Source: a virus (Duplodnaviria > Heunggongvirae > Uroviricota > Caudoviricetes). Taken from it: a stretch of DNA of 10,113 bases. The notes below the pieces were generated by a model. The model was given only the letters and a program-made list of their open reading frames with translations. It was not told the origin of the DNA and did not search any database. Positions within the stretch are counted from its first letter, which is position 1; each line of letters starts with the position of its first letter. Below are positions 1 to 10,113 of the stretch, piece after piece. Made by a program: the position numbers and the translations under genes. Location of the stretch: the IMG/VR virus record IMGVR_UViG_2574179916_000007; one strand, given 5' to 3'.

Positions 1-171
1 GCCCAGTTTCCGGTAAAAAGACCGACCAGAACTTGTGCGACAACAGCGCAAAGTGCGTGAAGAATTGGTGTTATATCAACATCTATATTCATCATAAATA
101 ACTCATTCCATTTTCACAAATAAGCCGCCAACAAGAAGACGGCATTAACATTAAAATAATTATATATGATG

Positions 172-2301
172 CTATTCCTCAATACCTAACCTGCTTGAAA
201 CCTCAGGCATAACAGTAACCTGAAGGGTTTTTGATGAATCTGTGTTTTTAATTGCTATGCTGATATTGTCAGAAGTGCTGTTATTGTTTGACACTGTTAT
301 AGAGTTTGCATCCACCCCGAGTTTCGAATAAGCATCAGCAAAACTAAGACCAACACTTCCACCAACAACTCTATATGAACCATCAATTCTGAATGACGAT
401 ATATTGTTATTGCTAACATCTCTAATTAGAACCCATATAGAAACACCCCTGAAAACAAGGCTTGCCCCTGATGGTATTTGAAGTGATACAATTCCTGTGG
501 AACCGGGGGGGATACTGCCAGTATATTTAGTTCCGTGCAGATATTTCCCCGGTAGGTCTAAATACGATGTGTCTGGATGTAATAAATTATGTATATGTCT
601 GCTATCTATGCTTCCAGACAGAACCATAGAATCATTGCCATATTCAATTATCCTTCCACCATCGTTACTTATTGTAAGTAATCCTTTGTTTCCTTTATTA
701 TTTCTAACAGTTATATCAGAAGAATCCAGGCGGACAATTGATATATTTTTTTCTGATCCATGACAATAATTTGATGAAATTTCACCTGTAACAAGTGACG
801 TACATAAAATGTCTGAACTTCCATCACTGTCGCCAGTAATAGTGTTGCAGGAAATTAATGCACCATATACCAGACCTGTTGGAGATTCTCCAAATTGCTC
901 TATAGTAATCCGTTTTGTGGTATTTGCTGATATGGTTATATTATGAACATCGTCAGTTTGCGATGTTACTTTGATCCTTGATGAAACTGTATTTCCAGAA
1001 ATAGTAACATTACTTGTATCATCCACCCATAAATATGACGAAAACGTATTACCTGATATGACTGAGTTACTCACCATTGAGTTCTCAAGCTCACATGAAC
1101 CATAGCTATTGTTATGGTCATAATTTCCTATAATCCTTACAAATCCATTCTGGTTAATGAAGTTGTATGATGTTGCATTTTGTCCGCCATAAGTTGAGTT
1201 ATGTGATGTTTCAGCATTTGTAACGCCTATATGTTGAAAATGACCGGCATTTACAGAATCAGGAGCAACTGATGTACACCCTATTACTTTTGTGTTTTTG
1301 ACAATTCTTGAATTAGGGTCATTCTCCAAATAATAGTTTTTTGCAACAAATGCCGTAGAGTAAAAGAAACCTTCAAATCTATTAAATAAAATCTGAATAT
1401 CGTCATAATCTCTTTGGTCTTCATTTGCATAGCAATAAAATGCTCTTGAAGACTCGGAGTAATCCTTGCATTTCTGAACGCCAGATAAAAGTGATCGGAT
1501 TCTGCTAGATTTTATTCTAAATCCGTTGTGAATTAACGTTGCATCACCAACTAATGTTATTGGCTTAAACAATTCAACCTTATCAAAAACAAATTCACCA
1601 CCATAAAATCCAAGTATAGCCCCTTCTGGTACTGCATTAATAGCATTTTGAATTGCTACAGTATCATCTGTTATGCCGTCTCCTTTTGCACCAAAATCAC
1701 GAACACTAATGGTGTCTCTCATCTTATCCTGGAACGTTCGGTACACAGCCCCAGAACCATACTGAATAAACCAACCAAAACCACCAACAACCCCGGCGAT
1801 TGCAGCATCGACATAATTACGCATTGAGCGATTATTTACAGCATCCTGCTCAAGTGATGGATCTGCAAGGTTAGAAATTCTGTTTTGCTTTGCATCGTAA
1901 TATTTTGCAAGCAGAGAGGGCTTCATCAATGCACGTCTGAACCACCCAAAACATTGCTGGATCAGCATCGTCAGGTAGTCAAAGGCATCTTCATGCACTT
2001 CGGGGAAAAATTTTCCCTGATTGCGAAGGTCTGTCTCCTGCACTACATCAAGCACACGATCTATCGTAATTCGCCATCCAGTAGCAAGCGGAGACGGAAG
2101 AACCACAGAACCGCCACTATAAGTGCCCGCCCCAGTTACCGTATAACCGGTATCCAGGACCAATTCTGTTACGTTTCCGTTCAGATCAGACACCTGAACA
2201 ACCAGGTCTGATTTTCTGAAAATTCGAAAAGTATACGGAAACGATGTCGTAACGCCGTTACCGGTGTATTCGTTGTGGTCAACTTCGGTTGAGACCGTCA
2301 T
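172..2301 (-). CDS. Phage tailspike / tail fibre protein with T7 gp17-like N-terminal adaptor and pectate-lyase-like beta-helix (putative polysaccharide depolymerase)
   Basis: 709-aa ORF with ATG at 2301 and GGAG about 8 nt upstream on the minus strand. The N-terminal ~150 aa (YTGNGVTTSFPYTF...VVQVSD...) resemble the T7-type tail-fibre N-terminal domain. The motif DFGAKGDGITDDTVAIQNAI is typical of pectate-lyase-3 / right-handed beta-helix proteins. The C-terminal part is Ser/Asn/Thr-rich and the gene is visibly AT-rich. Confidence 0.85.
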   Translation of the reverse strand: MTVSTEVDHNEYTGNGVTTSFPYTFRIFRKSDLVVQVSDLNGNVTELVLDTGYTVTGAGTYSGGSVVLPSPLATGWRITIDRVLDVVQETDLRNQGKFFPEVHEDAFDYLTMLIQQCFGWFRRALMKPSLLAKYYDAKQNRISNLADPSLEQDAVNNRSMRNYVDAAIAGVVGGFGWFIQYGSGAVYRTFQDKMRDTISVRDFGAKGDGITDDTVAIQNAINAVPEGAILGFYGGEFVFDKVELFKPITLVGDATLIHNGFRIKSSRIRSLLSGVQKCKDYSESSRAFYCYANEDQRDYDDIQILFNRFEGFFYSTAFVAKNYYLENDPNSRIVKNTKVIGCTSVAPDSVNAGHFQHIGVTNAETSHNSTYGGQNATSYNFINQNGFVRIIGNYDHNNSYGSCELENSMVSNSVISGNTFSSYLWVDDTSNVTISGNTVSSRIKVTSQTDDVHNITISANTTKRITIEQFGESPTGLVYGALISCNTITGDSDGSSDILCTSLVTGEISSNYCHGSEKNISIVRLDSSDITVRNNKGNKGLLTISNDGGRIIEYGNDSMVLSGSIDSRHIHNLLHPDTSYLDLPGKYLHGTKYTGSIPPGSTGIVSLQIPSGASLVFRGVSIWVLIRDVSNNNISSFRIDGSYRVVGGSVGLSFADAYSKLGVDANSITVSNNNSTSDNISIAIKNTDSSKTLQVTVMPEVSSRLGIEE

Positions 2302-2404
2302 GTTAAATCTCCAGATAGTCGCAGCACCCGTTGCGCCGCATATCTGGTTATTCTATTACCTGAAAAACCATATATGGATAAAAAGACTATAAATACCAAT
2401 AGAT

Positions 2405-2421
2405 ATTACCTTTCGGGTAAT
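2405..2421. promoter_or_regulatory. Operator-like inverted repeat ATTACC-TTTCG-GGTAAT (copy 1 of 3)
   Basis: Perfect 6-bp arms with a 5-nt spacer, 76 nt upstream of the ATG at 2497. The same TTACC-N5-GGTAA core recurs at 3854..3870 and 4914..4930. Confidence 0.5.
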
Positions 2422-2457
2422 TTGCAAAACGTGCTGGATAGCAAACAAATTATTTGT

Positions 2458-2477
2458 TACTGTATAAACATACAGTT
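2458..2477. promoter_or_regulatory. LexA (SOS) box
   Basis: TACTGTATAAACATACAGTT has perfect CTGT-N8-ACAG half-sites and 17 of 20 matches to the consensus TACTGTATATATATACAGTA. It lies 20 nt upstream of the ATG at 2497 in an AT-rich promoter-like stretch. Confidence 0.7.
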
Positions 2478-2496
2478 ATTGCATGGAGAAGATAAG

Positions 2497-2754
2497 ATGC
2501 AGCAGTATCACTATCCACTGGAAGACGGATTTACCGAAAGGATTCACACGCCGGGAGGCGTCAGGTCACTGGTGGAGGGATCGCACTTGATGAAATTACT
2601 CCGGGATCTCGATAAGGATGGATTTAATGTCGATGGCCCACTTGCCGAACTGACTGCACTGATTAACTACGTCACCAGCTCACAGATGTCTATGCAGGAT
2701 CTGCAAACACATCTCGACTATTGTGCCGAACAATTACGAAAACAAACCACATAA
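2497..2754 (+). CDS. Small (85 aa) antirepressor-like protein, a stand-alone homologue of the Ant C-terminal domain; probably SOS-inducible
   Basis: ATG at 2497 is preceded by GGAG 8 nt upstream. The product (LMKLLRDLDKDGFNVDGPLAELTALINYV...MQDLQTHLDY) aligns with the C-terminus of the 4138..4829 product (LMNLLNQLQEDGHDVSGAAAELTTMFCYI...LRDIQTHAEY). The longer ORF-track start at 2374 would place the LexA box and operator repeat inside coding sequence. Confidence 0.6.
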   Translation: MQQYHYPLEDGFTERIHTPGGVRSLVEGSHLMKLLRDLDKDGFNVDGPLAELTALINYVTSSQMSMQDLQTHLDYCAEQLRKQTT

Positions 2755-2776
2755 AGAAAAGGCCGCGAAAGCGGCC
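2753..2776 (-). terminator. Rho-independent terminator for the minus-strand two-gene operon
   Basis: Perfect hairpin GGCCGC-GAAA-GCGGCC at 2761..2776, followed on the minus strand by a U-rich run (complement of AAAGAAAA at 2753..2760). It sits directly after the stop of the 2778..3284 gene and also just after the stop of the plus-strand small gene. Confidence 0.6.
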
Positions 2777-2777
2777 A

Positions 2778-3284
2778 TTAACAGTCGTAAAATTCTGGGT
2801 CCCACAAACTAGCATCGCGCGGCATGGATTCTAACTTTTTCAGCCGCAAAATTCTGTCACACTCGACAACTAATTTTTGCTTCTGCTCGTCAATTTCTAC
2901 TGTCTTATGTGCTGGTTCATCCCAATAATCCAGAAGGAAGGCATGGCGTTCAGATGTGACCAGATAAATCACATACACGTCACTGGTTGGGATCTTTTTA
3001 TGCTTGTTAGTGGTCTTGTCTTTCTTCCCAGACGCCCAGTTTTTCCAGCATTGTTCCGTACCGCTCTCACCAAACTTGTCAGTATAGTTTCCGATGTTTA
3101 CGTGAACGTGGCGTATGTGATATTCCAGCATTTCTTTCGGTGGATCCCGAAACAGAGTGTCCTTTCCGAAATCCTTATGATGACCGTAGCGCCAGTGATC
3201 TATGAACGCGTTTTTGATAGGTATTAGCTCAGGGTCCTTCCCAAAAATTCCAGGGTGAACCAACCCCTGGAATTTATTCAGCAT
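2778..3284 (-). CDS. Putative toxin of a two-gene module (168 aa); tentatively YafO-like mRNA interferase
   Basis: Start taken at the internal ATG (3284..3282), which overlaps the stop of the upstream gene in the arrangement GATGCTGAATAA (translational coupling). The ORF-track N-terminal extension would overlap the upstream gene by about 100 nt. His-rich motifs DFGKDTLFRDPP...LEYHIRHVHVNIGN and VIYLVTSERHAFLLDYWDEPAH resemble, from memory only, the YafO family (FGRD...HIHL...PEPH). Confidence 0.65.
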   Translation of the reverse strand: MLNKFQGLVHPGIFGKDPELIPIKNAFIDHWRYGHHKDFGKDTLFRDPPKEMLEYHIRHVHVNIGNYTDKFGESGTEQCWKNWASGKKDKTTNKHKKIPTSDVYVIYLVTSERHAFLLDYWDEPAHKTVEIDEQKQKLVVECDRILRLKKLESMPRDASLWDPEFYDC

Positions 3285-3693
3285 CGTCGTAGAGCTCCTG
3301 AGCCATATCTTCGGCAGTGCGTGCAAACATCCTGCGCGAGATTGCATGAGATTTCTCGACGGACATCTTTGGGACCTCATGCATAACATTTTTGGGAGTT
3401 GTGTAATAGCCTATTACAATTTTCACACCTGACTTATGATTAATATCAGCATAATATACTTCTTGTTCAGACGTTTCACGACGAACATAATCTGCCAGTT
3501 TTCCACATTTAAATTCCCCTCCCTGATGTTTTAAAATCTCCTCAACTGCACTATTTTCAGTGAAATACCGAATAAGAAATTTCTGTCCAGACTCTTCAGC
3601 ATGAGGTATAACAGTATTATTGGAAGCCCGAACAATGGCCTTACTCAATATTTCATGGTCTTTATTTTTTTCTGATTTCCTCAAATGCTGCAT
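3274..3693 (-). CDS. Putative antitoxin / partner protein (139 aa from first ATG) of the two-gene module
   Basis: ORF ending 8 nt inside the start of the downstream gene. The first ATG (3693..3691) has AAGAGAG about 8 nt upstream; alternative GTG (3723) or TTG (3729) starts would give up to 151 aa. The C-terminus is acidic (EDMAQELYDDAE), as in many antitoxins. No recognisable DNA-binding motif and no family identified. Confidence 0.6.
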   Translation of the reverse strand: MQHLRKSEKNKDHEILSKAIVRASNNTVIPHAEESGQKFLIRYFTENSAVEEILKHQGGEFKCGKLADYVRRETSEQEVYYADINHKSGVKIVIGYYTTPKNVMHEVPKMSVEKSHAISRRMFARTAEDMAQELYDDAE

Positions 3694-3825
3694 TACTGTA
3701 GCTCTCTTCGTGTTCACGGGCACCCCCAACTACCTCTAGGGTAAACATTCTATCGAAAGTATACGCATACTGGCAAAAAAATAGGCAGGTATTTTCTGAA
3801 ATGGGATAAATCAAACCATATAGGG

Positions 3826-3855
3826 TTGAAATAACGTGAGTTATGCATTTATTAT
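3826..3855 (+). promoter_or_regulatory. Candidate sigma70 promoter reading toward ant
   Basis: TTGAAA (3826..3831), 18-nt spacer, TATTAT (3850..3855). The operator repeat copy 2 begins at the 3' edge of the -10 element. Confidence 0.35.
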
Positions 3856-3870
3856 TACCTTTTCGGTAAA
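3854..3870. promoter_or_regulatory. Operator-like inverted repeat ATTACC-TTTTC-GGTAAA (copy 2 of 3)
   Basis: TTACC-N5-GGTAA with perfect 5-bp arms, overlapping the predicted -10 and transcription start of the ant-proximal promoter. Confidence 0.5.
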
Positions 3871-3962
3871 TTTACATTGCACTCCTCTTGTGCCATAGTA
3901 ATCGGGCACTGGCAAAATCCAGTGCCGGGATTGGTCTCCCGGATTACTACAGAGGCACATAT

Positions 3963-3982
3963 GCCGCATAAGCGGTTTTTTT
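3963..3982 (+). terminator. Terminator-like short hairpin plus U7 within the ant upstream region (possible attenuator or sRNA 3' end)
   Basis: GCCGC-ATAA-GCGG(T) stem-loop followed by TTTTTTT on the plus strand. The stem is short (4-5 bp), so this is weak on its own. Upstream hairpins lie at 3905..3926 and 3925..3942. Confidence 0.35.
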
Positions 3983-4137
3983 ATGTGTAAAGCGCACCTA
4001 TTCTATGGTGGGCTGTGTGGGGGCACCGAAAGGTGCGCCGGGTTCCTTTGTAGCCGGTAAGACCAACTCTGCACAGTTCACCACCATCTGATTGGTCTCA
4101 GCGGTGGTGATTAACCTAACTACAAAGGTGATCGCTA

Positions 4138-4829
4138 TGAATACCAAACCTTCCATCTTTTCCTTTGAGTCATCCTGCCAGATCCGTATGTTCATGATTG
4201 ACGGAGAACCTTGGTTTGTCACCAAAGATGTGTGCAATGCTTTGAATATTGATGTTACACAAGCGAGAAAACTTGATAAAAAAGGCTGGAACAAAAAGGG
4301 GCTGTATTCAATACAGACCCCTGGTGGAATACAAGAACTATCCATCGTTTCAGAATCAGGTCTCTACATCCTTATTCTGCGTTGCAAAGAGGCAATGACT
4401 GAGGGAACGAGAGCATTCAGATTTCTTGAATGGGTTACAGGTGAGGTTCTTCCTCAGATCCGCCGCACCGGAAGTTACATTAAAAACTCGCTCCCGCAGG
4501 AAGAACGCATAAAGATGGTTGCCGACCAGGTAGCCAACGCCACAGCATCAGCAGTGATGCAGGCAATGAAGGTAGAGAACAAAACCTACAGCGCCCCACT
4601 GAAGCCCGGCTACCGCAGCCTGATTCATTCGCCGTCTGGTGTTCTCGGCCTGACGGAGAACTCACTGCTGATGAATCTGCTAAACCAGTTACAGGAAGAC
4701 GGGCACGACGTATCGGGCGCGGCGGCGGAGTTGACCACCATGTTCTGCTACATCGTCGGTGTGAGCAAATGCCTGCGTGATATCCAGACGCACGCGGAGT
4801 ACATCAACGACAAAGCAGGGTTCTTCTGA
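4138..4829 (+). CDS. ant: Phage antirepressor (Bro-N N-terminal domain plus Ant/KilA-C-type C-terminal domain)
   Basis: ATG at 4138 with AAAGGTG 7 nt upstream; the ORF-track start at 4092 is a non-ATG alternative. The N-terminus (FESSCQIRMFMIDGEPWFVTKDVCNALNI...SESGLYILILRCKEAMTEGTRAFRFLEWVTGEVLPQIRRTGSY) matches the Bro-N pattern. The C-terminus is homologous to the 2497..2754 product. Confidence 0.85.
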
Positions 4830-4871
4830 CGGGCGGCGGCACAGGGATGTGCCTACAATTATCAATAATTG

Positions 4872-4900
4872 TTTACACTCGTTGCAGTTAAAAGCATTAT
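4872..4900 (+). promoter_or_regulatory. Candidate sigma70 promoter for the 4951..5752 genes
   Basis: TTTACA (4872..4877), 17-nt spacer, CATTAT (4895..4900), in the AT-rich intergenic region after ant. Confidence 0.3.
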
Positions 4901-4913
4901 ACTCATGTTTAAA

Positions 4914-4930
4914 ATTACCCGATTGGTAAA
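4914..4930. promoter_or_regulatory. Operator-like inverted repeat ATTACC-CGATT-GGTAAA (copy 3 of 3)
   Basis: TTACC-N5-GGTAA with perfect arms, between the candidate promoter and the GAGG ribosome-binding site of the 4951 gene. Confidence 0.5.
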
Positions 4931-4950
4931 GTCGATTGGTTGAGGTTCAT

Positions 4951-5277
4951 ATGAGCAGAAGATATGTCAAGGAGCTGGCTATAGAGTCTGGCACCCCTTT
5001 GGGTATCGTTCCTGGCTCCAACTATGCCAAGGCTTTAAACCGAGACTCTGTCGTCAAAGTTATATCAAGAGACATGAATATGGTCGGAGACGATCTCAGA
5101 CGGTCAGAAAATCGTGTTTATGCTGAATATATAGTAAAGAACGGAAAAAAAATTGCAGCGCCTGCTGGCGGAAAATGGGCAATAGTGACAGGGAAAAACT
5201 CAAATGCAAGAGGAAAACCAGAAGCTAAAGGAATGTCCTTCGACAAATATGCAAAAATCTATTGGGCAACCAAGTGA
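4951..5277 (+). CDS. Hypothetical basic protein (108 aa); possible regulator
   Basis: ATG at 4951 with GAGG 5-6 nt upstream; the ORF-track start at 4936 is TTG. Lys/Arg-rich product with no recognised motif. Operator copy 3 sits in its leader. Confidence 0.55.
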   Translation: MSRRYVKELAIESGTPLGIVPGSNYAKALNRDSVVKVISRDMNMVGDDLRRSENRVYAEYIVKNGKKIAAPAGGKWAIVTGKNSNARGKPEAKGMSFDKYAKIYWATK

Positions 5278-5752
5278 TAACGAAGAAACTGAGTTCGAGG
5301 AAGTTGAGGAAGGGCTAAGTAACGAGATCATTCAACACCCAGATGCCTTCACAAGAGTTCTTGATCGCCCTGAAATTCAGGAGATAGTTGTCGCTCACCA
5401 TGCGTTTCAGGGTCCGCTTCCTCCCCCCTATCTGCTTCGCGGGTATCAGGATATTTTACCTGATGCCCCCGAACGCATCTTCCAGCTGACGGAGAAGGAG
5501 TTTGCTCACCGCCAGAAAATGGAGGAAAAGGCACTTGACGGGGCTATTAATAGAGATAAACGTGGGCAGTGGTTTGGCCTGAGTGCAACTATTTTTACAG
5601 TAGCTTGTGCAACATTATTAGGTTTAACAGGTCATGAAGTTCTAGCTGGCACAGTGATCGGTACAGTTGTTGCAGTGGCTGGTATTTTCGTTCTTAGACA
5701 AAAACCAAGCATCAAGAAGAAATCTGAAGACAACAAACCTGAAGAAAAGTAA
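5204..5752 (+). CDS. Hypothetical membrane protein (182 aa): acidic N-terminal region and two predicted C-terminal transmembrane helices
   Basis: ORF overlapping the upstream gene in another frame. Start is ambiguous: ATG 5204 (GGGA about 9 nt upstream) or ATG 5249. Hydrophobic stretches WFGLSATIFTVACATLLGL and LAGTVIGTVVAVAGIFVL are followed by a Lys-rich tail. A conserved-looking QGPLPPPYLLRGY motif is present. A strong terminator follows. Confidence 0.55.
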   Translation: MQEENQKLKECPSTNMQKSIGQPSDNEETEFEEVEEGLSNEIIQHPDAFTRVLDRPEIQEIVVAHHAFQGPLPPPYLLRGYQDILPDAPERIFQLTEKEFAHRQKMEEKALDGAINRDKRGQWFGLSATIFTVACATLLGLTGHEVLAGTVIGTVVAVAGIFVLRQKPSIKKKSEDNKPEEK

Positions 5753-5773
5753 GCCCGCGCTGCGGGCTTTTTT
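5753..5773 (+). terminator. Rho-independent terminator
   Basis: GCCCGC-GCT-GCGGGC hairpin followed by TTTTTT, immediately after the stop codon at 5750..5752. Confidence 0.75.
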
Positions 5774-5845
5774 GTGGACGAAACAAAAGTCAGTGCTACA
5801 CTCATTGACGCCACATTGAGGTGGCTTATAGATGGAAATTTCACA

Positions 5846-6007
5846 ATGAAAAAAGCATTTGCTGCACTGTTCGTTTTGTTGTCTCTGGTAGCTTCAACTC
5901 AGGCCTTTGCCGGTCGTTGTCAGCACGACAGCGATACTGCCGCTGACGGCTCCCGCTGCGGTGGGCGTTCTGCGGATTCCCGCCCTGGCGGCGGTGGCAT
6001 TCGTTAA
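5846..6007 (+). CDS. Small secreted peptide (53 aa precursor with Sec-type signal peptide)
   Basis: ATG at 5846 with GGAAA about 7 nt upstream. The N-terminus MKKAFAALFVLLSLVASTQAFA is a classic signal peptide with an AxA cleavage site. The mature part is Gly/Ser/Asp-rich with two Cys. A possible promoter is TTGACG (5805..5810) with TATAGA (5827..5832). The ORF-track GTG start at 5774 overlaps the upstream terminator. Confidence 0.45.
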   Translation: MKKAFAALFVLLSLVASTQAFAGRCQHDSDTAADGSRCGGRSADSRPGGGGIR

Positions 6008-6035
6008 AAACAAGGCCGCGAAAGCGGCCTGTTTG
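6006..6035. terminator. Bidirectional rho-independent terminator between convergent genes
   Basis: Hairpin GGCCGC-GAAA-GCGGCC at 6014..6029 is flanked by AAAAACAA on one side and TGTTTG on the other, so either strand reads hairpin plus U-rich tract. The hairpin is identical to the one at 2761..2776. Confidence 0.7.
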
Positions 6036-6036
6036 A

Positions 6037-6888
6037 TCACTGTGCAGTTTTCGCTGATCGATTTTCAGCTCTAAATTCAAGAACCGTTTCAATATTTCTT
6101 TCCTTCAGCATATCAATAACATTTTTATTCATTTGACTATCACTGGTTAATAACTGGTAAACGTTGCTTCTCTCTTTATCAGAGTTTTCTTTAACAGCTG
6201 CTTTGCATGCCAAATGCTTATTGAAATTTTCTACATCGCTAGTACAGGAATTTACGGCTGCTGATGAAATATCAGACGCTGAAGAAACACCGTCATCCAA
6301 ACGTTTTATAGCATTTTCTATACATGAGTTAAGGGAATAAACGACAACTGAGCGATACCCTTCAGACGCACACCATTCTAAATTTCTTGAAGGATCGAGT
6401 GGTTTTACTTCGCTGGATTGAATTAACTTGTCAAAAACTGACTTATATTCAATCTGTTTTTTATCTATAGCCCATACTTCAGTAGCTGATTTATAATTCC
6501 CCGTATGCCTATTAACATCAAATCCATGTTTTATAAGCAAATCTGCCCATGAAAGATTTATTGATTCATTGTTATGAGGCCATTTTCCTGTCAGAACCGC
6601 CCCCATAGACCCCATATATCCGCCATATGATGGTATAGCACCATGGCTCAGTAACTTCTCTGCAACCACAGGGCAATTAATTACATAAGAGGCGTAAAGC
6701 CCATTCCATAAAGCCCCTCTATAGTAATCGCCACGATTAGGTTCTTTTAAGTCGATAGCCTTTGATAATTGTTCGCACGTTTTGCATGCATCAAAGTTAT
6801 CCTTATTGCATTGCAATGAACTGGCAGCTGTAGGATTTACAGAGACTATTGAAAGCACTATGCCAAAAAACAAATTTATTTTTTTCAT
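6037..6888 (-). CDS. Secreted or periplasmic protein of unknown function (283 aa), AT-rich moron at the end of the structural operon
   Basis: ATG at 6888 lies 1 nt after the TAG stop of the upstream 1065-aa gene (TAGGATG), implying coupling. The N-terminus MKKINLFFGIVLSIVSVNPTAA is a signal peptide and is not a lipobox. The mature protein has multiple Cys. The gene is visibly lower in GC than the upstream gene. Segments VAEKLLSHGA and ADLLIKHGFDVN weakly resemble ankyrin-repeat helices. Confidence 0.75.
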   Translation of the reverse strand: MKKINLFFGIVLSIVSVNPTAASSLQCNKDNFDACKTCEQLSKAIDLKEPNRGDYYRGALWNGLYASYVINCPVVAEKLLSHGAIPSYGGYMGSMGAVLTGKWPHNNESINLSWADLLIKHGFDVNRHTGNYKSATEVWAIDKKQIEYKSVFDKLIQSSEVKPLDPSRNLEWCASEGYRSVVVYSLNSCIENAIKRLDDGVSSASDISSAAVNSCTSDVENFNKHLACKAAVKENSDKERSNVYQLLTSDSQMNKNVIDMLKERNIETVLEFRAENRSAKTAQ

Positions 6889-6889
6889 C

Positions 6890-9800
6890 CTATTTCATCT
6901 GCTCTTCAACTTTATTTAGTAATGGTGATATCGCCCACAGATTCTGAAAAGGTAGCATTTTACGGACAGCGTGGGTTTGCTGGCTGTCAAATTCTCCGTT
7001 AAGTACACCATTTGCAACCGTCGCGGCATCACCGCCAAGATCAAAGGTAGGACCAAGTAAAGCACCAATAGCATTACGACTCTGAAACCTTGATACCGGA
7101 GGCGCACCAAACATCGCGCCAAGACCAAACCTACCGCCGCTTATGTTCTCAACGGTATTCAGCGGCTCAGAGAGCCAGCCAAGCATTCCGCCCCGGTCGA
7201 TCCCCTCTTTCACAAGGTTATTCCAGCTGTAGTCGATATCGCGACCGCTTAACTTCTGTTTCATCATATAGACCATTGAGCCAAGCGCAATCGTGCCAAG
7301 CGCACCAAGATAGAATGCAGCATCGCCCTGCTGGATACCAGATACTAGCACCCTGTTATGCTGTGCGAAGATAAACGTTTTGAACTGCGTGATCATCTTC
7401 CAGCCTTCTTTACTAAAAAACAGCGGTGTATCACCTACGCCAGGCGTTACAATCACTGAGTCTACATCTTTCAGCACTGCAGACTGGAAAATCTCTCTAG
7501 CGAAACGGTCATCCCACAGATGACTATGCCCGGTTAACAGCCCGTCCATATCCTCTCCGTGCTTCCCGAATTGCTCCCCGATTCGGCGCAGAACATCTTC
7601 ATTGATGCCGACCTGTGCCATCTTCCGCATTTCACTTTTGGAGAGCGTGCCACCAGCAGAAACTTGGCGAGCCGCGTCAAGTATCCTCGACTGCACTATC
7701 ATCCCAGACCATGATTTAAGTGCGCTGTTCCACTGATTCATCAGCGTCCAGTTACCGAATTTCTGCGTCATCCAGTTCAGACCTCGCTCAGCGGCGCTTC
7801 TCCGGCTATAGGGGTCAGTAAGATCCGCTATAGCCTTTGTGCGCGTAGACAGGACATAATCAAGCCCAACTGCCATTTCTCGCAAATCCCTGGTTGCAAT
7901 TTTCACTGAGTCCATATTTTTAAGCATGCTTACCATTGGTCCGAGAGATTTTCTCAGGCCATGCTGCATCATCGGTCGCATCAGATCAGTTGCAGCGGAG
8001 ACGGTCATTCCACCAAGCAAACGGAGGAAGTTAATATTCCTAGCAACTCGCCCGGCACGAACAAAGAAACTGCGTGGATCTTGAGGTGCGCCGTAAGTAC
8101 CAAGCAGTCGGTCACGCATAGCCGTAATATCCCTAATATCAGCCTCCCGTTGCTTCTCAAGAGCTGCACGTCGTTTAGGTGTTTTAGCCTCTTTTATTAG
8201 CCGGGTATATTCCTCACTAACCTGACGGATTTGCTCCCCCATATCTTTACGGCCAAACTGCGCAGTCAGCTCAATTTCTGGTGCCACCTGCCGGAGATAA
8301 CTTTCCATGATGTAGTTAACATCTGATTCAAGAAAATCTTCTATACGCTCATCAGGAATAAGCAGCGTTCGGCTTTTAGTGAAACCAGCCCGACCAACGA
8401 GTCTCTCTGGGATAATATCGGCTGGTACAAGCCCGGAAGGTGCGCCTATTATTTTATTCACGATCTCGTCAGCAGCGTCCTCTGCTTCCTCTCGGGATAG
8501 AGGCTCCATCTGCTTCAGTGCTCGCTCGCGGCTTGCATTCAGCCTTGTGGTTGAATTTGCCCGTTTTTGCAGTCGGCGAAGCTCAGAACGATATTTCCGT
8601 GGATTATCCAGCAACTCCATATGGCGCTGATAGACAGGAAGCTCACTCTTTGCCTGCGCTATATCATCAAGGCGTGTTTTAAGGTCAGAGCTTTCTTTCA
8701 TCATTCTTGCCTGAAGTTTTTCTGATGAAGTCTCGGCCAACTCTTTTTCTATTCTTGTAAGACGCGCCTGTGTGTCAGTCTCCTGAGATATAAGCTTATT
8801 TCGTTTATCCAGTTCTTCCATGAGTAGAATTTTTTTACCAGACCATTTCTCCGCTTCAGCGATTTCACTAGCGAGAGCATCAGCGCGCGGTGCTGATTCC
8901 TCTGCAGTTTTTAGCAATGAATTTATCTTTTCAATTCGCTGACCTGCTTTGTCAGCACCTTTGGCACTAATCCCTTGTATCCAGTTGGCAATTCGCCCTC
9001 TGAATTCAGTGCGGTCGGAAAGTATCTTATCGAACTTATAAATGCGGGGAAGATAACTCTTCGCCGTCACGACATCGATATCCTCAGGAAGGATCCCCAA
9101 TTCCTGCATACGGGCTTTTGTGGTCTCAAAAATGGGGCGGATTCTGGCGGCTGCTTGTGAAACCTCAGGAATATCACTCTGATCACCACGGCGCATAGCC
9201 ATGCCAACAGCTTCATTGAAATCAATAAAGTTCATCCTCTTCACGCCGCGGGCGCTGACAGATTTGCTGTACTGCTGGTAAGCATCACGAGTAGCTTCCA
9301 TCTGCTTATAAAGCATGGCGTCGTATTGCTTAATCTTAGTCTCGACTGCCGTAAACGTAGCCAACCCCTCATCATTTTTGGCGAAGAAATAGTTATTTTC
9401 GGCAAGCTGCTGGTTAATCTGACGGGAAACAAGAGATGGTGATTGCGCCAAGCGGCCAGCAGGAGTGACACTCAACGTTTTGTTAGCAAGTCCAAGTCCA
9501 GCAAGCTGTTCCTGATCGAGTGTGGTATTGAAAACCTGAGCTGCACCAATGCTTTGAGGAGAATCCATACCTCGCAAATGATTACCTACTGAGTTAACCA
9601 CTGCCTCGCGCGCGCTAGGTCCAGCAAGTAGCTGTGCACCAGCACCAAGGATCCCACCAACGAGAGCATCAACAACAACGTTCGATACGCTCTCCATCGG
9701 TGAGCGAGCTTCCTGAGTGGCCTGCAATGCGGCCTCTGAAGCAACACTGCCAGCAGCATTGGCTAAAGCAAAACGTCCGGCTGTTTCTGCAATACGACCG

Positions 9801-10087
9801 CCACGAACGACAGCGCCGAACGGAATAAACATAGAAATCGCATTGAATGGATCTGCTAATCTCATTGCTACAGAAGAGACTGTACCAGCAAATCCCAAGC
9901 CTGAATTGTATTCCATGTCAGCTCTCTGCTGATCGATTCGATGTTTAATTGCCATTGTTTCTTCATGCGAACCGGAGTTGATAAACGAATCTGCAAAATC
10001 TTCATAGCCTTTAATATCTGCTGCATCGTTATCAAATGGGTTATATCCTTCAACCCTGTTAGACTGGCCCCCTGAATCTCCAGACAA
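6890..10087 (-). CDS. Large virion-associated protein (1065 aa); candidate internal/ejection protein or tape-measure-like protein
   Basis: Uninterrupted 3.2-kb ORF. It is predominantly alpha-helical with charged coiled-coil-like central segments (for example [34 protein letters not shown]) and Gly/Ala-rich hydrophobic segments near both ends. It occupies the last position of a structural operon before the immunity module and tailspike. The start is probably TTG at 10087, 6 nt after an in-frame TGA; the next ATG is at 9955. No catalytic motif was recognised. Confidence 0.8.
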
Positions 10088-10113
10088 CCAATATCACTTA
10101 AATAAGTGATAGT

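Follow-up and report, generated by a model that had tools for sequence, protein, structure and literature searches.

The gene at positions 172 to 2,301 of the window, as we refer to the whole 10,113-nucleotide stretch of DNA analyzed here, very probably encodes the virion tailspike of a temperate podovirus that belongs to the epsilon15/phiV10-like group (genus Uetakevirus) and resides as a prophage in E. coli, a reading in which we include the stepwise mechanism proposed below. DNA comparisons demonstrate that its receptor module, along with the beginning of a small membrane-protein gene downstream, makes up a mobile cassette that is swapped nearly unchanged among architecturally unrelated E. 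coli phages; the foreign part is the receptor module alone, the anchor being native to the genus. The features on which the discussion draws are as follows.

172..2301, minus strand: tailspike/receptor-binding protein gene, 709 aa plus stop codon (ORF list, phrog_13893, identical database proteins)
2309..2312, minus strand: GGAG ribosome-binding site, 8-11 nt 5' of the ATG, read from the sequence
2032..2301, minus strand: N-terminal beta-sandwich anchor domain, ~aa 1-90 (AlphaFold2, Foldseek, Dpo31 match, epsilon15 identity)
1711..2031, minus strand: predicted helical neck, ~aa 91-197, containing YYDAKQNRISNLADPSLEQDAV, common to T7 gp17 (AlphaFold2 helices)
607..1710, minus strand: right-handed parallel beta-helix, ~aa 198-565, opening with the cap motif ISVRDFGAKGDGITDDT (PF12708, AlphaFold2, Foldseek)
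1018..1119, minus strand: candidate active-site stretch, aa 395-428, with the family-conserved residues D395, E404, E406, W425, D427 and D428
187..564, minus strand: Ser-rich C-terminal beta-sandwich, ~aa 580-705 (DSSP strands, fragment residues 400-522, pLDDT >90)
1..1711, no strand assigned: AT-rich exchangeable cassette, comprising the receptor module, the intergenic region and the start of the small downstream membrane-protein gene

The reading frame opens with ATG and matches phrog_13893 ('tail protein') with E 3e-279, and annotated genes encoding proteins 99.4-100% identical to it occur in phage phiv142-3 (Orf6, 709 aa) and in 32 complete E. coli genomes, so that a chance ORF can be dismissed. 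WP_024946529.1 of E. coli prophages is identical to the 709-aa protein and phage EC.W1-9 likewise carries the tailspike at 99-100% identity, although its gene is split, perhaps through a sequencing error in the G-run at window 505-511. The gene is thus an ordinary and already catalogued one, the protein having been deposited and an E. coli tailspike survey (PMC10408124) mentioning it by name; modular tailspikes combining a genus-specific anchor with a horizontally exchanged beta-helix are well described, and we claim no novelty for it as a type of object.

The whole window is 99.97% identical to EC.W1-9, and phiv142-3, placed in Uetakevirus by its taxonomy line, aligns piecewise to window 1-6032 at 97.7%. 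Genes run in the order lysis cassette, small gene, tailspike, antirepressor and T7 gp16-like and gp14-like internal virion proteins, and in the annotated regions of EC.W1-9, phiv142-3 and the FDAARGOS_497 prophage the tailspike occupies a slot flanked by the lysis genes on one side and the antirepressor on the other, with the genes for the internal virion proteins upstream of it. A preliminary description had called the protein a tailspike, an identification upheld by phrog_13893, the Uetakevirus anchor, the gene position and tailspike matches in the PDB. It had also taken the adjoining antirepressor as a P22-like sign and seen a T7-type anchor in a P22-like setting; however, this neighbor is normal for the epsilon15/phiV10-like genus and the virion genes beside the tailspike are themselves T7 gp14-like and gp16-like, so that the mosaicism was misplaced, lying in the receptor module and not in the anchor.

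In the window's source an IS3-family element cuts off the internal virion protein gene, and therefore the window's own prophage may have lost particle production. Among complete E. coli genomes no record contains the point where the IS element joins the prophage.

Anchor and neck

Residues 1-197 correspond to the Uetakevirus tailspike anchor. The tblastn identity is 71.5% to epsilon15 over aa 1-165, 68.1% to O157 typing phage 10 and 67.1% to TL-2011b, all the epsilon15-like phages of Salmonella, E. coli and Enterobacter listed besides epsilon15 lying at 63.7-68.5%, and PHROG tail-spike and tail-fibre families cover stretches from aa 1-166 to 1-236 with E 1e-98 to 1e-117. In the AlphaFold2 model the strands of the anchor span aa 9-82 at a pLDDT of ~90, and the first Foldseek match is the tail-fibre N-terminus of phage Carin-1 (8ck1_B, E 1.8e-13, TM 0.89), a structure solved on the virion, followed by the fibre anchors of T7, PhiM1, LME-1, P-SCSP1u, Kp7 and Kp9. 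The sequence match to Dpo31 of Carin-1 in the PDB has E 3e-32. By homology residues 1-90 belong to the T7 gp17 anchor superfamily, and their beta-sandwich would dock the spike on the tail, to judge from these solved relatives.

Residues 91-197 are predicted to continue as a helical neck, with helices at aa 100-125, 151-173 and 184-198 in a monomer model that is of low confidence here. Domain D2 of Dpo31 is a three-helix coiled coil (PMC13317679), and the neck is probably a trimeric coiled coil as well.

The T7-type N-terminus noted in the preliminary description is borne out by an indirect route. The Pfam model of the phage T7 tail fibre N-terminal domain, PF03906, scores 18.9 bits (E 0.0012) against the tailspike, below its gathering cut-off of 25.2, with the best-scoring stretch at aa 135-161 (model positions 123-149). 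BLASTP of the anchor against T7 gp17 finds a 22-aa motif only, YYDAKQNRISNLADPSLEQDAV in the neck (~aa 134-155) matching T7 gp17 aa 128-149, and an HMM built from 32 anchor sequences (the query and 31 homologues) gives no significant score for T7 gp17. Anchor homologues that are 49-65% identical to the query do pass PF03906: P0280 (51% identical, E 1e-52) reaches 43.8 bits over model positions 6-149, P0285 36.6 bits and P0187 31.0 bits, and a scan of 35 proteins, including 31 anchor homologues, gave 14 matches at E <= 0.01. P0280 in turn aligns with T7 gp17 at 26% identity over 149 aa (E 9e-6), and Foldseek pairs the anchor model with the T7 gp17 N-terminus in 7ey9_a (E 3.8e-6) and 7boz_a (E 1e-5). 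Judged from these intermediates and from the predicted fold, the anchor and the N-terminal domain of T7 gp17 are distantly related.

The AT-rich cassette and the receptor module

A change in composition accompanies the passage from neck to receptor module: the GC content is 46.7% in window 1711-2301 and 35.9% in window 1-1711, against 45.7% in the remaining window, and GC3 falls from 0.40-0.50 to 0.12-0.34 near aa 200. Window 1-1711 is 98.9% identical to a P22-like prophage of E. coli SFAD3 over 1711 ungapped bases, whereas to the right of position 1711 identity drops to 24-52%. The cassette runs ~159 bp past the window's left edge, and the block common to the O1 lysogen and SFAD3 measures 1871 bp. 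Across P22-like prophages its DNA is 98.7-98.9% identical without gaps, which directly bears out the horizontal exchange of the receptor-binding module put forward in the preliminary description. The AT-rich composition noted there holds as well (~46% GC elsewhere).

The same module is found on other N-termini. In E. coli prophages, over 110 clusters of 663-aa tailspike proteins join it, at 96-98% identity, to the P22 head-binding domain PF09008, and in one 675-aa protein it is attached to PF18668, which makes a third type of N-terminus. It is present in 37 of 5426 complete genomes, twice in 5 of them, and also in tailspikes of lytic phages (St11Ph5, fBC-Eco01 and Aeromonas phages). Earlier work (Pas et al. 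2023, PMC10408124; PMC11522302) already covers the phiv142-3 protein and sets out both the conserved anchor of Uetakevirus and the receptor domain as an exchangeable part. The cassette boundary is exact and nearly unmutated: the block starts at codon 198, where the DFGAKGDG cap motif lies, and ends around codon 84 in the small downstream gene, and it offers a ready-made junction for host-range engineering.

The pectate-lyase-like beta-helix proposed earlier emerges from profile, model and comparison with known tailspikes alike. PF12708 matches aa 198-255 (E 1.3e-11, 45.1 bits, cut-off 27), and AlphaFold2 predicts an all-beta receptor module with pLDDT 92.7 and pTM 0.85. The best Foldseek matches in the PDB are phage tailspikes (6e1r, 2vbm of Sf6, HK620, CBA120 TSP2; probability 1.0); there are 106 matches at E <= 0.001, the best 50 of which are all beta-helix proteins, mostly phage tailspikes and depolymerases, with sequence identities of 9-15% and TM values of at most 0.45. 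The minor tail protein of Arthrobacter phage Sergei superimposes more closely (TM 0.85, rmsd 2.6). A Ser/Asn-rich C-terminus, also claimed earlier, stands in part: aa 561-709 contain 17.4% Ser and 6.7% Asn, but aa 351-450 are equally rich in the two residues (28-34%), so that the C-terminal richness is only partly distinctive.

When the sequence profile of the receptor-module family is compared with the PDB the cap motif is matched and nothing beyond it, and therefore catalytic residues cannot be transferred from solved structures. Candidates come instead from an alignment of 40 sequences, with homologues 22-97% identical to the query, in which E406 never varies and conservation reaches 95-97% at D395, D427 and D428; we infer from this pattern that the conserved carboxylates are catalytic. 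Membership in GH28, suggested by the PGAP name 'glycosyl hydrolase family 28-related', was rejected: PF00295 gives no match at E <= 0.01, the sole NCBIfam match is a rhamnogalacturonidase model that reaches 20.9 bits against a cut-off of 500 through the cap motif alone, and the RIK at aa 442-444 is not kept across the family. Among Pfam endosialidase domains the only match is a weak one to the End_N_terminal cap (18.8 bits, cut-off 26.3), and a search of Pfam and NCBIfam for an esterase (SGNH) domain found none.

In the mechanism that we propose, residues 198-565 would bind a surface polysaccharide through the right-handed beta-helix predicted by the model and would most likely hydrolyze it by means of D395, E404, E406, D427 and D428, while the beta-sandwich of residues 580-705 may cap the presumed trimer, the model itself being a monomer.

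Receptor and activity of the spike

The wzx and wzy names in the lysogens identify O1, O2/O50, O7 and O83 clusters (FDAARGOS_497 being the O1 and LD67-1 the O83 lysogen), and the module is therefore not tied to one O serogroup. This is at odds with the usual rule of one spike for one O-antigen. Since O groups O1, O2, O7 and O83 are classically associated with K1, the K1 capsule was considered as a common receptor; it is ruled out by FDAARGOS_497, where region 2 of the kps locus holds wecB, wecC and glycosyltransferases and no neu genes, as in a non-K1 capsule locus. An O1/O2-type rhamnan backbone likewise does not cover all lysogens, since the O83 cluster of LD67-1 is without rml genes. The literature gives the phiv142-3 host, DE142, as O2 with K1 capsule genes (PMC7724020) and adds O5, O1, O102 and O51 for hosts or lysogens of the spike. 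With the capsule types differing between the two lysogens compared, and with four O clusters, no O or K type is singled out for the putative O-antigen or capsule depolymerase of the preliminary description.

The P22-type prophages of VTB96816v and UID2309220041 lie at other integration sites and gave no O cluster reading ~60 kb away.

One tentative proposal, on balance unlikely, is that the receptor module recognizes a glycan independent of O and K serotype, such as the enterobacterial common antigen, a core structure or another common exopolysaccharide. Such a glycan would explain a near-identical module in epsilon15-like, P22-like and a third type of phage, the O1, O2/O50, O7 and O83 (and reportedly O5, O51 and O102) lysogens, and the spot lysis by EC.W1-9 of isolates of many sequence types that has been reported. 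A second role in the lysogen might exist in addition, in view of the serum and iron phenotype reported for orf6. Should the uncoupling from O serogroup stem from a common receptor, typing or therapy could make use of the spike as a broad binder of E. coli.

It is less probable again that the beta-helix works as a polysaccharide lyase ('eliminase') on a capsule or exopolysaccharide that contains uronic acid, and not as an O-antigen hydrolase. The independence of the module from a single O type would fit, as would the K-antigen receptor suggested for this spike subtype by Pas et al. (PMC10408124), but capsule type varies, FDAARGOS_497 being without neu genes and DE142 having K1 capsule genes. 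While the gene is labeled 'eliminase' in the EC.W1-9 record, Salmonella virus PAT1, which has only the anchor in common, bears the same label, so that it probably derives from the anchor. Pectate/pectin lyase-fold proteins, alginate epimerases and the RbmB lyase are among the Pfam and PDB matches; the conserved positions, however, are chiefly carboxylates along with Tyr, His and Trp, a pattern seen in tailspike glycosidases, and include only one Arg (R524).

The strict retention of D395, E404, E406, D427 and D428 in E. coli, Aeromonas and Arthrobacter phage homologues points to catalysis and makes it slightly more doubtful still that the module binds without cutting, either as an adhesin-only spike or as a glycan-modifying enzyme such as a deacetylase. 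Non-enzymatic beta-helix adhesins such as PfbA (4mr0) do occur among the structural matches, and mutants resistant to St11Ph5, whose module is 47% identical, retain an unchanged LPS ladder (PMC6393563); a modifying enzyme is disfavored by the lack of an SGNH match in Pfam and NCBIfam.

That the gene serves chiefly as a fitness factor of the lysogen, aiding iron acquisition and growth in serum, and not as a virion protein, is highly improbable, although deletion of orf6 in APEC DE142 lowered growth in chicken serum and iron-poor medium, iutA transcription (down to 43%) and bacterial load in blood and heart, plasmid-borne orf6 restored the phenotype and orf6 is upregulated in serum (PMC7724020): sequence, structure and gene order all indicate a structural tailspike, that study gives no mechanism, the lysogen phenotype is compatible with a virion role, and lytic phages, as noted, use the same module in their tailspikes.

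Comparison with known tailspikes

The Uetakevirus tailspikes (epsilon15 gp20, phiV10, TL-2011b, PAS61 and phiv142-3 Orf6) share with the tailspike studied here the N-terminal anchor, the slot flanked by lysis cassette and antirepressor and the layout of anchor, neck and beta-helix. Orf6 of phiv142-3 is the same protein, with a 99.4% identical receptor module, whereas the receptor modules of epsilon15, phiV10 (O157) and TL-2011b (O103) differ, BLAST identity stopping at window ~1690-2180. The 663-aa tailspikes of P22-like phages (Lederbergvirus), for example WP_411330242.1 of SFAD3, show the converse. They have the same module from ISV(R/S)DFGAKGDG to the C-terminus, at 96-98% protein and 98.6-99.3% DNA identity, and the start of the downstream small gene in common, but carry the P22 head-binding N-terminus (PF09008, E 1e-65) in place of the epsilon15/T7-type anchor, and the integration sites of these prophages are different.

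Among solved structures the closest relative of anchor and neck is Dpo31 of Cobetia phage Carin-1 (28lx, 28mg, 8ck1), a podovirus depolymerase-type spike placed on the virion by cryo-EM; its enzymatic domain bears no sequence relation to ours beyond the cap motif. The Sf6 and HK620 tailspikes, solved O-antigen endoglycosidases, also have a right-handed beta-helix receptor domain and give the best TM values among solved tailspikes (0.40-0.45), with a cap-motif match to Sf6 of E 1e-5; at 9-15% identity their active-site positions are not transferable, and their specificity is bound to one O-antigen type. The N-terminal domain of T7 gp17 (PF03906; 7boz, 7ey9) has the same fold as the anchor and presumably an equal role, anchoring a trimeric fibre on the podovirus tail. 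The two align colinearly through P0280 and have the motif near aa 134-155 in common, at a Foldseek sequence identity of 14-21%, and they part in the distal region, which is a beta-helix spike in the tailspike and a T7-type fibre in gp17.

Tailspike gene and its surroundings

Gene order was taken from the identical FDAARGOS_497 prophage and from the EC.W1-9 and phiv142-3 records. A lysis cassette is followed by a 98-aa membrane protein, the tailspike, a short ORF and a YafO-family toxin pair, after which come a Bro-N antirepressor, small genes and large internal virion proteins.

Features of the window
1-92, continuing past the left edge (11796-12092 in prophage locus L003), - strand: 98-aa predicted membrane protein, phrog_1443
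172..2301, - strand: tailspike, 709 aa, ATG start
8-11 nt 5' of the tailspike ATG: GGAG
2374-2754, + strand: short ORF beside the tailspike; phrog_450, phrog_15539, antirepressor phrog_1760
2778-3284, - strand: YafO-family toxin (PGAP name in the identical prophage)
3274-3729, - strand: 151-aa ORF, phrog_9503, upstream of the YafO-family toxin and overlapping it
4092-4829, + strand: Bro-N antirepressor, C-terminal third in phrog_450, phrog_15539 and phrog_1760
6037-6888, - strand: 283-aa protein, phrog_6118, signal-peptide-like N-terminus, 37% GC
6890..10087: 1065-aa ORF, phrog_342 'internal virion protein with endolysin domain', T7 gp16 type

A gene farther upstream carries the PGAP label 'virion core protein, T7 gp14 family', and an antirepressor adjoining the tailspike is also annotated in phiV10, Enterobacter phage Tyrion and Salmonella epsilon15-like phages. 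The antirepressor neighbour and the T7-like virion genes thus identify the surroundings as those of an ordinary epsilon15/phiV10-like phage with T7-like tail and ejection genes. The preliminary description had seen a T7-type adaptor held in P22-like surroundings, which is incorrect since an antirepressor neighbour is usual in this setting; the same gene order rules out a P22-like frame with an inserted T7-type anchor.

Judged by its family matches, the short ORF at 2374-2754 looks like a separate copy of the antirepressor C-terminal domain. The overlap of the YafO-family toxin and 151-aa ORFs suggests that a toxin-antitoxin-like pair separates the tailspike from the antirepressor; in the P22-like prophage of SFAD3 the tailspike likewise has a YafO-family toxin gene nearby, its DNA similarity to that of the window being undetectable. 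A second AT-rich island, 6037-6888, follows closely on the 3' side of the internal virion protein gene, and its 283-aa product may be a moron; the phiv142-3 match stops at 6032, with a different, shorter gene (Orf12) in this position. Bases 10067-10113 (47 in all, junction 10066/10067) form one terminus of an IS3-family insertion sequence, whose transposase with programmed frameshift begins ∼40 bp into such copies. The 50-base stretch 10064-10113 has 13,910 occurrences across 3,742 complete E. coli genomes, and the IS/prophage junction was absent from all complete E. coli genomes searched. Intact copies of the T7 gp16-like gene, as in EC.W1-9 and FDAARGOS_497, measure 3390 nt; here the element has removed the gene's 5' end, so this copy of the prophage is probably defective.

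The ORF at 172-2301 is, as claimed, a real gene, given its match to PHROG family 13893 ('tail protein', E 3e-279), its annotated relatives and the GGAG preceding the ATG. Escherichia phage EC.W1-9 matches window 1-10066 at 99.97% identity, phiv142-3 (genus Uetakevirus per its record) carries the gene as Orf6 (709 aa, 'putative tail fiber protein') and window 1-2400, the gene with its flanks, is present at an identity of at least 99% in 32 complete E. coli genomes, where the label is 'glycosyl hydrolase family 28-related protein'. Seven G are found at 505-511 and six in the EC.W1-9 GenBank record, so that the tailspike of that record is broken into an 'eliminase' of 625 aa and an ORF of 47 aa; the missing G probably reflects a sequencing error in the homopolymer, and the frame is intact at the run in the window, phiv142-3 and chromosomal copies. 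Deletion of phiv142-3 orf6 led to poorer growth in serum and iron-poor medium and to less iutA transcription, and was complemented (PMC7724020). That orf6 works mainly as a fitness factor in the lysogen rather than as a virion protein is improbable; the phenotype is compatible with a structural role, and the study offers no mechanism.

Anchor and receptor module

The anchor (aa 1-197) was detected by tblastn in 133 phage records, with identities of 71.5% for epsilon15, 63.7-68.5% for the other listed Salmonella, E. coli and Enterobacter epsilon15-like phages, 55% for a Klebsiella phage, 46-49% for Pseudomonas podoviruses and 28-40% for Pelagibacter, Xanthomonas, Bordetella BPP-1 and other phages. 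It is therefore epsilon15-like, not the foreign element of a mosaic for which it had been taken. The nearest solved relative is the Dpo31 tailspike of marine phage Carin-1 (E 3e-32, aa 1-180), set at the virion base by cryo-EM, whose domain D1 is a β-sandwich (residues 8-87) followed by three-helix coiled coils (PMC13317679). AlphaFold2 places strands at aa 9-82 of residues 1-200 (pLDDT ∼90), the subsequent helices being ill-defined in the monomer, and the predicted anchor resembles Dpo31 in its β-sandwich followed by helices.

As regards T7, direct sequence tests were weak and tests through intermediates and fold were clear. The anchor scores 18.9 bits against Pfam PF03906 (cut-off 25.2), BLASTP against T7 gp17 aligns a motif alone (YYDAKQNRISNLADPSLEQDAV versus HLDARGRRIVNLANAVDDRDAV) and an HMM of the anchor family left T7 gp17 unscored. 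PF03906 was found at E <= 0.01 in 14 of 35 scanned proteins, 31 of them anchor homologues. One homologue, P0280, shares 51% identity with the anchor of the window (E 1e-52), reaches 43.8 bits over nearly the entire PF03906 model and shows 26% identity to T7 gp17 across residues 7-148 of the latter (E 9e-6); two others, P0285 and P0187, likewise exceed the cut-off. Foldseek with the anchor model returned the Carin-1 fibre on top (E 1.8e-13, TM 0.89), then fibre anchors of LME-1, PhiM1, T7, P-SCSP1u, Kp7 and Kp9, the T7 matches being 7ey9_a (E 3.8e-6), 7boz_a (E 1e-5) and 7boz_c (TM 0.72). These intermediates and structural matches make 'T7-type adaptor' correct at the superfamily and fold level, although the anchor's own sequence falls below the PF03906 threshold.

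PF12708 matches aa 198-255 (E 1.3e-11). AlphaFold2 of aa 181-709, fed with our own 40-sequence alignment (22-97% identity to the query), gave an all-beta model (pLDDT 92.7, pTM 0.85) in which a long series of short strands (∼aa 198-565) precedes a distinct β-sandwich (∼aa 580-705). Foldseek found 106 PDB matches at E <= 0.001, led by tailspikes (Acinetobacter P1 and AM24, Sf6, Kp9 gp42, CBA120 TSP2, Fri1, Det7, HK620) with β-helix glycosidases, lyases and epimerases ranking below; among the matches listed sequence identity was 9-15% and TM at most 0.45, and the module family profile matched solved structures in the cap motif region alone. The pectate-lyase-like β-helix proposed earlier is thus confirmed as a fold, its solved homologues all being distant. 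The Ser/Asn-rich C-terminus was described in part correctly: Ser amounts to 17.4% of aa 561-709, but the Ser/Asn content of aa 351-450 is as high, making this a property of the entire β-helix region.

The module has relatives in E. coli phages fBC-Eco01 (52%) and St11Ph5 (47%), in Vectrevirus T205P4 and T205P5 (46%; the records give no host) and in Aeromonas phages (∼50%). The helix core (window 607-1380) is 36-48% identical to minor tail proteins of Arthrobacter phages, with a structural TM of 0.85 to that of Sergei, so that the putative enzyme core is common to phages of very distant hosts, including Gram-positive Arthrobacter. Over the 40 sequences Y314, H354, Y371, Y379, D395, E404, E406 (invariant), W425, D427, D428 and R524 are conserved. 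The P22, Sf6 and HK620 tailspike glycosidases act through a carboxylate cluster on neighbouring rungs, and from the conserved carboxylates we favor hydrolysis of the polysaccharide by the module. Membership in GH28 is unsupported, PF00295 being unmatched in the Pfam scan of the tailspike and the NCBIfam rhamnogalacturonidase model scoring 20.9 bits against a cut-off of 500.

Receptor and host serotypes

Lysogen O types were read from PGAP wzx/wzy names (O-antigen loci L012, L007, L008, L013). Epsilon15-type copies of the module are carried by FDAARGOS_497 (100% identical; O1 family) and turkey isolate 3908 (99.2%; O7 family), and P22-type copies by SFAD3 (O2/O50 family) and LD67-1 (O83 family, rml genes being absent from its cluster). 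O1, O2, O7 and O83 are classic K1-associated O groups. DE142, the phiv142-3 host, is described as O2 with K1 capsule genes, (PMC7724020), and a common receptor such as a K antigen was proposed for the phiv142-3 spike subtype, found at an identity of at least 95% in prophages of O5, O1, O102 and O51 strains (PMC10408124). The kps locus of FDAARGOS_497 (L016) is group-2, with wecB, wecC and glycosyltransferases in its serotype-specific region; neu genes are absent from it, so the capsule is not K1, and this non-K1 locus in an O1 lysogen rules out K1 as the common receptor.

The module is tied to neither a single O type nor a single K type. Its receptor may be independent of serotype, and a non-O-antigen receptor fits, without being proved by, both the reported spot lysis of isolates of many sequence types by EC.W1-9 grown on ATCC 25922 (bioRxiv 10.1101/2024.06.28.601134) and the LPS ladder retained by St11Ph5-resistant mutants (PMC6393563). 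The specificity of the module may instead be broad or drifting. Carriage may also no longer mirror the type infected, for example where a lineage, such as the ST648 group that predominates among the genome matches, has switched its O antigen, but such carriage is insufficient to explain everything because the module is present in two phage backbones and at several integration sites.

Exchange of the receptor module

Horizontal exchange, also put forward in the preliminary description, has the strongest support of any part of the finding. Searching with aa 181-709 yielded over 110 clusters of E. coli proteins, 663 aa in length, that share the module at 96-98% identity and have the P22 head-binding domain PF09008 as their N-terminus; their identity to the tailspike starts at I198 (ISV[R/S]DFGAKGDG...); in one 675-aa protein PF18668 takes the place of PF09008. 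At the DNA level the P22-like prophage of SFAD3 matches window 1-1711 at 98.9% identity, ungapped, with a drop to 24-52% right of 1711; its tailspike has PF09008 (E 1e-65) and, like that of P22, is neighboured by an antirepressor and two Arc-family genes. The AT-rich composition noted earlier is upheld, with a GC content of 35.9% in 1-1711, 46.7% in 1711-2301, where the 5' portion of the gene lies, and 45.7% in the remaining window; near residue 200, third-position GC falls from 0.40-0.50 to 0.12-0.34.

The block common to epsilon15-type and P22-type copies is 1871 bp, running through the intergenic region and ending ∼84 codons into the downstream 98-aa membrane protein gene. This gene lies directly 3' of the tailspike and its first ∼84 codons move with the receptor module; its product, without a match in Pfam and NCBIfam, may, speculatively, be a receptor-linked partner, e.g. 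in exclusion or receptor modification. Uetakeviruses ZX5, the Phi05 phages and HEMP4 have the anchor in common with the window as far as 1692-1766 and diverge beyond, so the same junction serves other receptor modules. The module is present in 37 of 5426 complete E. coli genomes, 5 of which have two copies, and we infer that CUVET19-970, IR53017 and ECJXMCRH7 carry an epsilon15-type copy together with a P22-type one (tailspike proteins P0053, P0043 and P0120). Window 1632-1695, the DNA of cap motif DFGAKGDGITDDT, resembles Streptococcus thermophilus phage antireceptor genes (81-84% identity over 64 nt) and is matched to the same extent by an Aeribacillus phage; at the cassette boundary, it could be a recombination point.

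The same pattern of exchange has been described for E. coli tailspikes generally (Pas et al. 2023, PMC10408124) and in Uetakeviruses (PMC11522302), and the protein is an ordinary Uetakevirus tailspike, already deposited and discussed in the literature.
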